DNA of 47,722 bases from Gemmatimonadota bacterium (GCA_035249945.1 DATFFS010000253.1:1-47722); one strand, 5' to 3'; positions 6,375 to 8,540 are shown, counted from the stretch's first letter. Numbers and translations are program-made. Notes: generated by a model from the sequence alone, not told the origin.

Positions 6375-8540
6375 ATGATCAAGATCAACACCCAGGTGGT
6401 GGACGAGGCATCGGGAGCATCATTCGCGAACGGCAACGAACACGCCCCGGAGTCTGCGGCGTCCTTCGACACCTCTTCGTTCGCGATCCCCGACAGGCGG
6501 TTGAATCCGAATGGCAACGCGCGTGTGGGGATCGGCACGCGGGCGATGAAGGTCCTCGATTGGGGCCTCACCAAGGTCGCCGGCGTCGCTTTCGACGGCA
6601 TCCAGCTCGTCAATCGGCATCGCCCCAATCCCTCCTTCACGCCCAAGTGGAGCGACAAGCCCCTTCTCAAGTCATGGGAGAAGTCCAAGCCCCGCCTCGG
6701 GTGGCCGCGTGAGACCGACTCGCTGTGTCCGAAGTGCGTCATCGAGGCGCGCAAGCGGATCATAGAGGGCGAGGAGGACTACAAGGTCCTGGTCCACGAG
6801 AAGGTGGGCGAGATAAAGGCGCAGATCGTGGAGCGCGACGGCCAGGTATGGATGGTCAAGGAGTGTCCCCAGCACGGTCGCTTCGAGGACCTCATGGCGG
6901 TCGACTCTCGGTTCCTGGAGTGGATCGAGGCGAATTTTCCGGGACGCGACCTGCGCGCGCACAACGACGGGGGCCTGCACGACCACGGCTCGTCCACGAT
7001 CAAGCACGGCCGGGGGTCGGTCCTCACCGTGGACCTGACGAACCGCTGTAACATGATGTGCGATCCGTGCTTCATGGATGCCAATCAGGTCGGTTTCGTC
7101 CACGAGCTGGAATGGGAAGAGATCCAGGAGATCCTGGACAACGCGCTCGAGATCAAGCCCCGGCGCCAGATGTCGGTGCAGTTCTCGGGCGGGGAGCCGA
7201 CCCTGTCGCCGCACTTCCTGCGAGCGGTCAAGTACGCGCGCGACATCGGATACAACTCCGTCCAGGCGGCCACCAACGGCATCGAGTTCGCGAAGAGCGC
7301 CGAGTTCGCCCAGCAGGCGGCCGAAGCCGGCCTGCGCTTCGTGTACCTCCAGTTCGACGGCATCGGCAACGACGCGAACAGCCACCGCAAGGTCGGGAAC
7401 CTGTTCGACGTCAAGCTCAAGGCGATCGACAACCTGTACAACGCCGGCGTCCAGATCGTTCTCGTCACGACGCTGGTGAACACGGTCAACAACGACCAGG
7501 TCGGCCCGATCGTCCGGTTCGCCCTGGACAACCCGAAGAAGATCGCGTTCATCGCCTTCCAGCCCGTGTCGTTCACCGGCCGCGACGACGAGATCACCGA
7601 CGAGCGCCGAATGCGGCAGCGGTACACGCTGTCACACATGGCGCGCGACGTGAAGCACCAGGTGGGCGTCACCGAGCCGCTGCGTGACTGGTTCCCGATC
7701 TCCCTGATGGGTCCCTTTGCGGACTTCGCCGACATGGTCCACGGCCCGGCGGCCGAATGGGGTCAGACGAGCTGCGGCTGTCACCCCAACTGCGGGGTGG
7801 GGACGGCGCTCATGGTGAACAAGACCACCAAGGAATTCCGCCCCGTGCCGGAATTCCTGAACATTCCGGGGCTGATCGCCGACATCCAGAAGATCACCGA
7901 CGCCAATCGTGGCAAGTGGTTGTCGAACGTCATGATGGGGCTGACGCTGCTGAAGAACTATGCGCCCTACAAGGCGCCGCCCAGCCTCACGCTGATCGAC
8001 ATCTTCAAGAAGTTCGACAAGTCGTTCGGCCTGACGGGTAAGGACTACGGCTCGCTCGGGCCCGACGGGGCGTGGGAGCGCCGCAAGGATCCGTGGAACT
8101 TCCTGTTCGTCGCGGGAATGTGGTTCCAGGACCTCTTCAACTACGACTTCCGCCGGACGGAGATGTGTATCATCCCGTACGCGACGCAGGAGGGTGAGAT
8201 CTCGTTCTGTGCGTACAACACCGGCCACGGGTGGCGGAACATCATCGAGAACATGCACAAGAACGCCAGCGTGGCGGAGTGGTACAAGGAGAAGGGGCGC
8301 CACGAGATCTTCGCCGGCGGCAAGGAAGTCCCGCTGGGGAACTACGATCACGCTCTGCTGGTCGACGAAGCGGACGCCGCGAGCGTGCGGGATCGCGGCG
8401 AAGGCCCCCAGAACGCCCACGAGGAGCGCCTGGCCGCGAAGAAGGCCGCCCGCGAAGCTCAGATGGTCCGCGAGTACTACGAGAAAATGGTGCTCAAGAA
8501 GAAGACCGACGATCAGCAGCTGGTCCAGATCGACCTGTAA
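6375..8540 (+). CDS. Large radical SAM protein resembling the MJ0619 / COG1964 family (archaeal tetraether lipid synthase Tes / GDGT-MAS type)
   Basis: ATG is preceded by GGGGAGGGGG. N-terminal CPKC...CPQHG knuckle, radical SAM motif LTNRCNMMCDPCF, blocks VQFSGGEPTL, ATNGIEFAKS, YLQFDGIG, KLKAIDN, VNNDQVGPIVRFAL and FQPVSFTGR, then SCGCHPNCG and MCIIPY...SFCAYNTG. The family call is from memory of the family pattern, not from a search. Confidence 0.7.
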   Translation: MIKINTQVVDEASGASFANGNEHAPESAASFDTSSFAIPDRRLNPNGNARVGIGTRAMKVLDWGLTKVAGVAFDGIQLVNRHRPNPSFTPKWSDKPLLKSWEKSKPRLGWPRETDSLCPKCVIEARKRIIEGEEDYKVLVHEKVGEIKAQIVERDGQVWMVKECPQHGRFEDLMAVDSRFLEWIEANFPGRDLRAHNDGGLHDHGSSTIKHGRGSVLTVDLTNRCNMMCDPCFMDANQVGFVHELEWEEIQEILDNALEIKPRRQMSVQFSGGEPTLSPHFLRAVKYARDIGYNSVQAATNGIEFAKSAEFAQQAAEAGLRFVYLQFDGIGNDANSHRKVGNLFDVKLKAIDNLYNAGVQIVLVTTLVNTVNNDQVGPIVRFALDNPKKIAFIAFQPVSFTGRDDEITDERRMRQRYTLSHMARDVKHQVGVTEPLRDWFPISLMGPFADFADMVHGPAAEWGQTSCGCHPNCGVGTALMVNKTTKEFRPVPEFLNIPGLIADIQKITDANRGKWLSNVMMGLTLLKNYAPYKAPPSLTLIDIFKKFDKSFGLTGKDYGSLGPDGAWERRKDPWNFLFVAGMWFQDLFNYDFRRTEMCIIPYATQEGEISFCAYNTGHGWRNIIENMHKNASVAEWYKEKGRHEIFAGGKEVPLGNYDHALLVDEADAASVRDRGEGPQNAHEERLAAKKAAREAQMVREYYEKMVLKKKTDDQQLVQIDL

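Follow-up and report, generated by a model that had tools for sequence, protein, structure and literature searches.

A bacterial homologue of the archaeal tetraether lipid synthase paired with a second radical SAM gene in Gemmatimonadota

Introduction

The archaeal tetraether lipid synthase Tes, also termed GDGT-MAS after its glycerol dialkyl glycerol tetraether (GDGT) product (MJ0619 of Methanocaldococcus jannaschii; structures 7TOL and 7TOM; NCBIfam NF045702), belongs to the enzymes of the radical S-adenosylmethionine (SAM) type and has homologues in bacteria. These homologues have been known as a class since 2022 (PMC8941075), and synthesis of branched GDGTs (brGDGTs) or of membrane-spanning lipids has already been hypothesised for them (Zeng et al., 2022; Halamka et al., 2022; Ding et al., 2025). 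Here, one member of this bioinformatic set is described. It is encoded by a gene at positions 6375-8540 of a 47,722-nucleotide (nt) stretch of DNA from a Gemmatimonadota bacterium (GCA_035249945.1, DATFFS010000253.1:1-47722), henceforth the window. An earlier reading of the DNA (the original prediction) had placed the protein in the Tes/GDGT-MAS family and had added that bacterial homologues have been proposed, not demonstrated, to make membrane-spanning lipids. The latter statement agrees with the literature to 2025-26 (PMC8941075, PMC11868695, PMC12042123).

The metal sites of GDGT-MAS have been described. A rubredoxin site is formed by C9, C12, C33 and H36, a surface N-terminal auxiliary cluster ([4Fe-4S]N) is held by C73, C77, C80 and a His, and the catalytic C-terminal auxiliary cluster ([4Fe-4S]C) has the labile ligand Met439 (PMC9433317). 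Met439 and Tyr459 are invariant across 1000 archaeal homologues. GDGT-MAS binds dipalmitoyl-phosphatidic acid of E. coli, and its head-group site is non-specific (PMC9433317).

Mss from Thermotoga and Thermoanaerobacter is the only bacterial enzyme for which tail-to-tail coupling has been experimentally shown (Sahonero-Canavesi et al., 2022). Like Tes, it is a radical SAM enzyme, with a proposed tail-to-tail coupling of fatty-acyl chains. However, its relationship to Tes is described as a remote one, and to date it is restricted to anaerobes and missing from Acidobacteria. Therefore, aerobic producers, e.g. subdivision 4 Acidobacteria, are left without a known coupling enzyme (PMC13159169).

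Results

Family assignment and fold

The open reading frame predicted on the plus strand was borne out by translation, which yields 721 amino acids (aa). The translation also contains the motifs that had been quoted for it: CPKC...CPQHG, CNMMCDPC, VQFSGGEPTL, ATNGIEFAKS, YLQFDGIG, KLKAIDN, VNNDQVGPIVRFAL, FQPVSFTGR, SCGCHPNCG and MCIIPY...SFCAYNTG. In Pfam, the protein matches Radical_SAM and the MJ0619-specific zinc ribbon Zn_ribbon_HMPTM (PF23545; residues 111-175, 55.6 bits versus a cut-off of 27). The top NCBIfam match is Tes (NF045702) with 325 bits and E 7.4e-97, whereby model positions 2-483 of 486 are matched on residues 114-629. The model of the radical SAM (seleno)protein TrsS (NF045646) was rejected: it scores 225.5 bits against a cut-off of 490 and covers the ribbon and the radical SAM core alone. 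Among PDB sequences, GDGT-MAS of M. jannaschii (7tol) is the sole strong relative (E 2.8e-66), followed by MoaA (E 2e-7).

An AlphaFold2 (AF2) model was built from a 73-sequence alignment comprising 37 sequences of the bacterial clade defined below and 36 archaeal ones. Full-length MJ0619 (P0391) was included in the alignments. The model reached a mean predicted local distance difference test score (pLDDT) of 78 and a predicted template modelling (TM) score of 0.82. In Foldseek, it matches 7tom/7tol with E about 1e-33 and a target-normalised TM score of 0.82-0.83 over 566-571 columns, so that the folds superpose. Other matches, of which MoaA is the next, reach the radical SAM core only. The cap or lipid-pocket domain of GDGT-MAS is retained in the model.

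The homology to Tes/GDGT-MAS is far beyond chance by profile, by sequence and by fold (Foldseek E 3e-33). Since the best profile is Tes over its full length and not another radical SAM family, the zinc ribbon is present and GDGT-MAS is the nearest relative by sequence and by fold, the family had been recognised correctly. The comparison of a predicted structure with the GDGT-MAS crystal structure, which the original prediction had proposed, gives the same answer. The 721-aa protein is a Tes homologue, not an equivalog. At NCBI, clade members are merely named 'radical SAM protein'.

Metal sites and catalytic residues

The rubredoxin site of GDGT-MAS is retained: in the alignments, C118, C121, C164 and H167 correspond to MJ0619 C9, C12, C33 and H36. 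By contrast, the surface cluster has lost its Cys ligands. Equivalents of C73, C77 and C80 are present in 36 of 36 archaeal versus 0 of 37 bacterial-clade sequences, and no Cys was found in the 45 aa preceding the radical SAM motif in any of the 84 clade genes. The position of [4Fe-4S]N is occupied by a conserved LH(D/N)HGSSTIKHGRG, in which the His alone is retained, and loop 197-212 at this site has a pLDDT below 50.

The catalytic centre is intact. Residues F233, R338, Q396, S399 and R403, the counterparts of F106, R210, Q268, S271 and R275 that contact SAM and 5'-deoxyadenosine (5'-dA) in MJ0619, are invariant in the 73 sequences. The same holds true for C473, C598, C612, M582 and Y602 (73/73). 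Here, C473, C598 and C612 are inferred to be the Cys ligands of [4Fe-4S]C from their conservation, as the cited text on GDGT-MAS names Met439 alone. A Cys census revealed two extra Cys beside C473, C467 and C469, that are invariant in the bacterial clade. From these residues, the bacterial enzyme is predicted to carry two [4Fe-4S] clusters and one mononuclear iron site, whereas GDGT-MAS has three plus one. In the cap/pocket domain, 76-79% of the archaeal hydrophobic positions stay hydrophobic in the bacterial clade, a count that takes pocket-lining and core residues together.

In summary, the window protein shares with GDGT-MAS the fold, the Cys3His ribbon, the radical SAM motif, the [4Fe-4S]C Cys with the labile Met, the Tyr459 equivalent, the 5'-dA contacts and the hydrophobic pattern of the cap domain. 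It differs in its 31-34% identity, the absent [4Fe-4S]N ligands, the two extra Cys and both terminal extensions. Furthermore, its host is a bacterium with ester-linked fatty-acid lipids, and its function is read here from sequence and model.

Terminal extensions

An N-terminal extension of about 110 aa and a C-terminal one of about 90 aa had been regarded as peculiar to this copy. The sizes are right: C118 aligns with MJ0619 C9, which gives 109 aa at the N-terminus, and the C-terminal extension (residues 631-721, missing in 80-98% of the aligned archaeal sequences) has about 91 aa. The supposed peculiarity did not stand, as both extensions are clade-wide except for residues 1-52.

This N-terminal tail is confined to homologues paired with an upstream radical SAM gene (see below). 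Matches in tblastn start within residues 1-31 in the nine paired sequences (the window and eight loci) versus a median of 53 in the unpaired ones, and the motif FDTSSF.(V/I)PDR.L.P.G is seen in the alignment of the paired N-termini. In the AF2 model, residues 1-39 have a pLDDT below 50. The following helix 53-82 is modelled with a pLDDT of 84-90; its hydrophobic moment of 0.45 makes it borderline amphipathic. The Trp/Lys/Pro-rich segment 86-113 is 91% conserved within the bacterial clade. Residues 53-113 might possibly form a membrane-interface element, and the enzyme might be peripherally associated via its extensions. A search of the 721-aa protein for a transmembrane segment found no 18-residue stretch with a mean Eisenberg hydrophobicity above 0.49.

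The bacterial clade

When a genome collection with a single genome for each species was scanned, relatives turned up in at least 597 species, the best 80 of which yielded loci. The 84 clade genes examined comprise 83 loci and the window gene. The best 80 are mostly from Pyrinomonadaceae/Blastocatellia, Terriglobia, Acidiferrales, Bryobacterales and Gemmatimonadota soil metagenome-assembled genomes (MAGs). The closest database proteins (94-95% identity) are labelled Gemmatimonadota, as are the nearest genome loci; Acidobacteriota-labelled proteins of about 668 aa are 73-78% identical. An identity of about 75% between Gemmatimonadota and Acidobacteriota indicates strong purifying selection.

In a neighbour-joining tree with 50 replicates, the window clade has 100% support. 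It is nested in a larger group that is apart from all archaeal-type sequences (support 100%) and also includes a Terriglobus roseus-type subfamily, represented by P0130 (T. roseus WP_014786616.1), P0141 and P0172 with 39-42% identity to the window protein. Subdivision 1 Acidobacteria make iso-diabolic acid though their Terriglobus-type homologue is without auxiliary-cluster ligands. The top acidobacterial matches of Zeng et al., which are 40-42% identical to MA_1486, may be members of another subfamily of the archaeal type.

Some clade members lie on contigs labelled Clostridia (L044), Saccharimonadales (L051), Xenobia (L079), Cybelea (L046 and L073), Acidimicrobiia (L014) and Eisenbacteria (L007), and a homologue of the partner protein described below (P0312, 68% identity) is labelled Halobacteriales archaeon. 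These odd labels could be due to horizontal transfer or to mis-binning of MAGs.

The upstream radical SAM gene

The gene was predicted to be paired with a second radical SAM gene. Such a gene indeed lies 61 bp upstream and encodes a 420-aa protein of the Twitch/SPASM class; the pairing is, however, lineage-restricted. Each of the six Gemmatimonadota loci (L001-L006) and two unclassified ones (L082 and L084) have the partner immediately before the Tes homologue, whereas the other 75 loci do not. The pair is kept in three different flanking contexts, and in L084 the two genes even overlap by 4 bp. The GGGGAGGGGG run in the 61-bp gap of the window is consistent with co-transcription of both genes. 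Partner relatives in Planctomycetota (about 47% identity) stand alone with no tes gene nearby, and the nearest non-paired relatives are only about 340 aa long.

The partner has the radical SAM motif C105/C109/C112 and five invariant C-terminal Cys (C325, C343, C376, C379 and C383). Every NCBIfam match is far under its cut-off. In its AF2 model (pLDDT 81.9), residues 1-56 mostly have a pLDDT below 50 and a single helix precedes the core. The best Foldseek matches are BlsE, SkfB, DesII, CteB, PqqE and SuiB with E values of 1e-13 to 1e-10 and 13-20% identity; as they score about equally, none discriminates, and assigning a function by fold was abandoned. Both radical SAM proteins start with long N-termini rich in Pro, Gly and Asn that are predicted to be disordered (5051-5260 and 6375-6530). 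The partner N-terminus contains the short conserved motifs PIPLE(S/T)LL and I(D/E)LP(I/V)GPP.

Bacterial homologues of gms, the gene for glycerol monoalkyl glycerol tetraether (GMGT) synthase, are reported to cluster with tes or mss in some bacteria (Garcia et al., 2024; Li et al., 2024). Like Gms, the partner is an AhbD-like radical SAM protein with C-terminal auxiliary-cluster Cys, and it adjoins a tes homologue. Gms possesses six helices in an N-terminal domain and, in addition, a complete SPASM domain that binds two auxiliary clusters ligated entirely by Cys, its Cys extending to about residue 438 (PMC11186832). In the partner, by contrast, the N-terminus is disordered, only one helix precedes the core, Pfam finds no SPASM match and the five invariant Cys end at residue 383. 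With Gms compared by its description, the architecture of the partner does not fit, and an identification as Gms is not supported. Downstream radical SAM genes in Acidobacteriota loci were considered as Gms candidates, too: that of L019 resembles MoaA, and those of L032 and L079 match the L019 gene at 45-46%. A radical SAM gene in L034 matches the partner weakly (28% identity).

Fe-S carriers

Convergent with the Tes homologue and, as predicted, facing it, lies a gene for an NfuA-type Fe-S carrier. Its Fe-S_biosyn and NifU domains are both above the Pfam cut-offs, and NCBIfam NfuA (TIGR03341) is matched over its full length with 121 bits versus a cut-off of 269. Of the 84 clade genes, 12 have a gene for NfuA or an IscA-like protein at a distance of no more than 4 kb. 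Three arrangements occur: in Gemmatimonadota the NfuA gene is convergent, in some Acidobacteriota it is divergent, and in others an IscA-like gene lies on the same strand. This recurrence in different arrangements points to a genuine functional connection with the supply or repair of clusters.

In LipA, a sacrificial auxiliary cluster is reportedly rebuilt by the Fe-S carrier NfuA, as described by McCarthy and Booker in 2017. The likeness to the present locus consists in an auxiliary-cluster sulfur that engages a substrate carbon and in the associated NfuA-type carrier. However, the C-S species of Tes is a proposed intermediate without sulfur donation, and the NfuA link here is one of gene proximity (12/84).

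In some Acidobacteriota and Acidimicrobiia loci (L019, 12118-14672; also L011, L014 and L026), an IscA-like gene is located about 1.2 kb downstream. In L019, it is preceded by a gene for a 337-aa protein with C-terminal Cys and followed by moaA.

Genomic surroundings

In the window, the pair is surrounded by genes for HldE, UDP-sugar dehydrogenases, epimerases, UGDH, UXS and GMD (Pfam/NCBIfam). The sugar-nucleotide setting that had been noted thus exists on both sides, but its conservation is confined to close Gemmatimonadota relatives. FtsK, epimerases, UGDH and UXS flank the gene in only three to five of the six Gemmatimonadota loci, and the flanks of L082 and L084 differ from these. Unbiased clustering of the neighbours in 82 loci yielded SurE, Pcm, DedA, QueG and phosphoglucomutase, i.e. 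housekeeping synteny. A functional operon with the sugar-nucleotide genes is therefore unsupported beyond the close relatives, and the surroundings are best regarded as local synteny.

A small Pterin_4a (PCD/DCoH-like) gene immediately follows the Tes homologue, in the same orientation, in five loci of different lineages (L007, L010, L013, L081 at 12203-12538 and L084 at 11686-12027). Curiously, a former annotation of MJ0619 was that of a pterin methylase.

Both radical SAM genes had been described as less G+C-rich than their neighbours, with 31 of 60 nt being G+C at 5341-5400. Both statements proved accurate (0.631 and 0.633 versus 0.64-0.69). Horizontal transfer was considered and rejected as the cause. 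The G+C content at third codon positions is normal (0.83 and 0.90; neighbours 0.81-0.93) and the deficit sits in codon positions 1 and 2, so that the lower value reflects amino-acid composition and not foreign DNA. Other stretches of the window are as low in G+C as these genes. The window mean is 0.675, with a spike of 0.756 at 33001-34000. No tRNA genes and no Rfam families above the gathering threshold were found across the 47.7 kb (1-47722), and a promoter and terminator scan of the window gave weak consensus matches only.

Table 1. Coordinates of the two radical SAM genes, their parts and neighbouring genes in the window
Feature	Position	Strand	Remarks
Partner gene, 420-aa Twitch/SPASM-class radical SAM protein	5051..6313	+	61 bp before Tes homologue; Pfam Radical_SAM only
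Shine-Dalgarno-like GGGGAGGGGG	6360..6369	+	5 nt before ATG, inside 61-bp gap between the radical SAM genes; sequence read directly
Bacterial Tes/GDGT-MAS homologue gene	6375..8540	+	Open reading frame, 721 aa, ATG start; Pfam, NCBIfam, PDB, AF2/Foldseek
Disordered tail, residues 1-52	6375..6530	+	Motif FDTSSF.(V/I)PDR.L.P.G; only in homologues paired with upstream radical SAM gene
Clade-specific helix 53-82 and Trp/Lys/Pro-rich segment 86-113	6531..6713	+	AF2, conservation; absent from archaeal Tes
Rubredoxin-like zinc-ribbon domain, residues 114-175	6714..6899	+	Pfam PF23545, alignments
Degenerate [4Fe-4S]N remnant, residues 196-212	6960..7010	+	HNDGGLHDHGSSTIKHG, no Cys; H204 (MJ0619 H83) alone kept
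Radical SAM CX3CX2C motif C225, C229, C232, then F233 (MJ0619 F106)	7047..7070	+	Invariant, 73/73 aligned
C467-G-C469-H-P-N-C473	7773..7793	+	Cys census; C473 (MJ0619 C338) inferred [4Fe-4S]C ligand
Residues 582-612: M582 (Met439), C598 (C455), Y602 (Tyr459), C612 (C470)	8118..8210	+	Invariant columns
Charged C-terminal extension, residues 631-721, with helix 681-705	8265..8540	+	AF2; 64-72% conserved in bacterial clade
NfuA-type Fe-S carrier	8705..9301	-	Fe-S_biosyn (PF01521) and NifU (PF01106) domains; convergent with Tes homologue
Capsule/exopolysaccharide export set	14838-20692	mixed	CpsB, Wza-like, Wzi-like, DUF4254, TPR protein, BamD
CpsB/CapC phosphatase	14838-15719	+	
Wza-like exporter	15746-16522	-	
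Wzi-like protein	16409-18250	+	
DUF4254 protein	18247-18951	+	

Discussion

Proposed function

The most likely function of the window protein, held with evenly balanced confidence and by analogy with GDGT-MAS, is the tail-to-tail C-C coupling of lipid alkyl chains. As in GDGT-MAS, two lipid molecules would be bound with one alkyl tail each in the hydrophobic pocket. 5'-dA radicals from two SAM molecules would abstract H from sp3 carbons in a terminal or sub-terminal position, and the first radical would be parked on a sulfur of the C-terminal cluster before the tail-to-tail C-C bond is formed. In bacteria, this would give a membrane-spanning lipid, either of the iso-diabolic-acid type or of the branched tetraester/tetraether type. 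The clade-specific helix and the Trp/Lys-rich segment would probably keep the enzyme in place at the membrane interface, and the adjacent NfuA would probably load or repair the substrate-engaging cluster. The Twitch-type partner would probably either act on the same lipid, introducing a further cross-link or modification, or assist the reaction.

Several lines of evidence argue for lipid coupling. Besides the homology and the shared fold, all residues tied to the GDGT-MAS mechanism are invariant (roles from PMC9433317), and the cap domain with most of its hydrophobic positions is retained. A bacterial lipid is a plausible substrate, given that GDGT-MAS binds dipalmitoyl-phosphatidic acid of E. 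coli at a non-specific head-group site. The clade is abundant in MAGs of Pyrinomonadaceae, Blastocatellia and Bryobacterales among the best 80 of at least 597 species; cultured representatives of these lineages produce iso-diabolic acid or brGDGTs aerobically and have no Mss (PMC4644332, PMC13159169, PMC10087280). The high identity across phyla, the recurrent Fe-S carriers and the conserved pair with the partner gene count in favour as well.

Several points weigh against this function. Lipid formation has not been demonstrated for any Tes homologue from bacteria (PMC11868695), and Tes homologues were reported in only three of 14 iso-diabolic-acid-producing Acidobacteria (Sahonero-Canavesi et al., PMC13159169). 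The Terriglobus-type subfamily of subdivision 1 is without the ligands of both auxiliary clusters, P0130 retaining the Met439 equivalent; the window clade can therefore not be the general iso-diabolic-acid synthase. A literature search for Gemmatimonadota together with Tes, brGDGT, iso-diabolic acid or membrane-spanning lipid found nothing relevant. Neither in the window nor in the related loci does a lipid-biosynthesis gene lie near the Tes homologue, the neighbours being envelope-polysaccharide or housekeeping genes. The comparison of hydrophobic positions is blind to the difference between pocket-lining and core residues. Finally, the Tes equivalog cut-off of 450 bits is not reached (325 bits), and with one cluster missing in addition, the function may have shifted.

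Alternatively, the same radical chemistry, in which H is taken from an inert alkyl or isoprenoid carbon and the intermediate is cluster-bound, might act on another hydrophobic envelope substrate, with the pair serving cell-envelope glycoconjugate biosynthesis. This is considered unlikely, although it is the strongest of the alternatives. Candidate substrates, regarded with the same reserve, are a polyprenyl-phosphate-linked glycan carrier, a glycolipid or lipid-A-type acyl chain, a hopanoid or a carotenoid. The sub-cut-off Tes score is in line with such a substrate, and so is the position of the window pair amid genes for UDP-sugar dehydrogenases/epimerases, HldE, UGDH, UXS, GMD, CpsB, Wza-like and Wzi-like proteins; in the two other contexts of the pair, glycosyltransferases, epimerases, an ABC-2 exporter and AsnB are encoded within 10 kb. 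However, the sugar-nucleotide flanks are conserved among close Gemmatimonadota relatives only, while most clade members reside in unrelated housekeeping synteny (SurE, Pcm, DedA, QueG). In addition, polysaccharide genes are very common in the genomes of soil bacteria. The structural matches of the partner include the nucleotide-sugar-modifying BlsE and DesII, but its Foldseek scores do not separate the Twitch/SPASM enzymes from each other.

An improbable alternative takes the loss of [4Fe-4S]N as its starting point. The loss might disable electron delivery, so that the protein would work only with the Twitch protein or another redox partner, or would have a non-catalytic lipid-binding or structural role. 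The three [4Fe-4S]N Cys are absent in every clade member, and the extra N-terminal motif of the paired forms could dock the partner. Yet the majority of the clade members lack a partner gene in their vicinity and nevertheless share about 75% identity and all catalytic residues, and the intact rubredoxin site could carry electrons by itself.

Least probable of all, by a little, is a non-lipid small-molecule substrate, e.g. a pterin or another cofactor: MJ0619 was originally annotated as a hydroxymethylpterin dimethyltransferase, and downstream Pterin_4a genes in five loci as well as MoaA or QueG nearby in some Acidobacteriota loci fit this idea, but the annotation was later disputed, the pterin activity could not be reproduced and the GDGT-MAS structure excludes a bulky hydrophilic substrate (PMC9433317), while the cap domain is complete in the bacterial model and its hydrophobic pattern mostly preserved, the residues tied to cluster-sulfur coupling are invariant and the window pair has no Pterin_4a gene beside it.

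Returning to lipid coupling, a bolder proposal concerns the Gemmatimonadota pair. These abundant, aerobic soil bacteria are not known for tetraether or diabolic-acid lipids. Membrane-spanning lipids might be made in this phylum by a two-gene radical SAM module, in which a two-cluster Tes couples the acyl or alkyl tails, a Twitch partner, docked via the N-terminal motif of the paired forms, introduces another C-C link or modification and NfuA recycles the substrate-engaging cluster. This proposal is speculative and rather unlikely to hold in full.

Significance

Few terrestrial proxies of palaeotemperature and pH are used as widely as branched GDGTs, and little is known of the organisms and the biosynthesis behind these lipids (PMC12042123, PMC10087280). 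The window clade is a concrete candidate for the aerobic coupling enzyme: it is highly conserved, rich in soil MAGs and has an intact catalytic site. The loss of one cluster constitutes a natural experiment on the role of [4Fe-4S]N, and the Gemmatimonadota pair forms a compact three-gene unit with NfuA (5051-9301).

The present analysis adds to this class a carrier in Gemmatimonadota, the loss of [4Fe-4S]N throughout the clade, the clade-specific extensions, the lineage-restricted Twitch partner with its associated N-terminal motif and the recurrent Fe-S carriers. In the surveys of bacterial Tes homologues by Zeng et al., Halamka et al. and Ding et al., there is no mention of Gemmatimonadota carriers, a missing [4Fe-4S]N, extensions, a Twitch partner or Fe-S-carrier neighbours. 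The value of the finding is tempered by the thousands of bacterial homologues already in databases and by a hypothesis that is four years old. The locus is not unique, but it bears on who makes brGDGT-type lipids and how. If the two-gene module were real, brGDGT-type proxies would gain a new source phylum and an aerobic counterpart of Mss would be identified. Furthermore, the surface [4Fe-4S]N cluster of archaeal Tes would turn out to be dispensable for catalysis.

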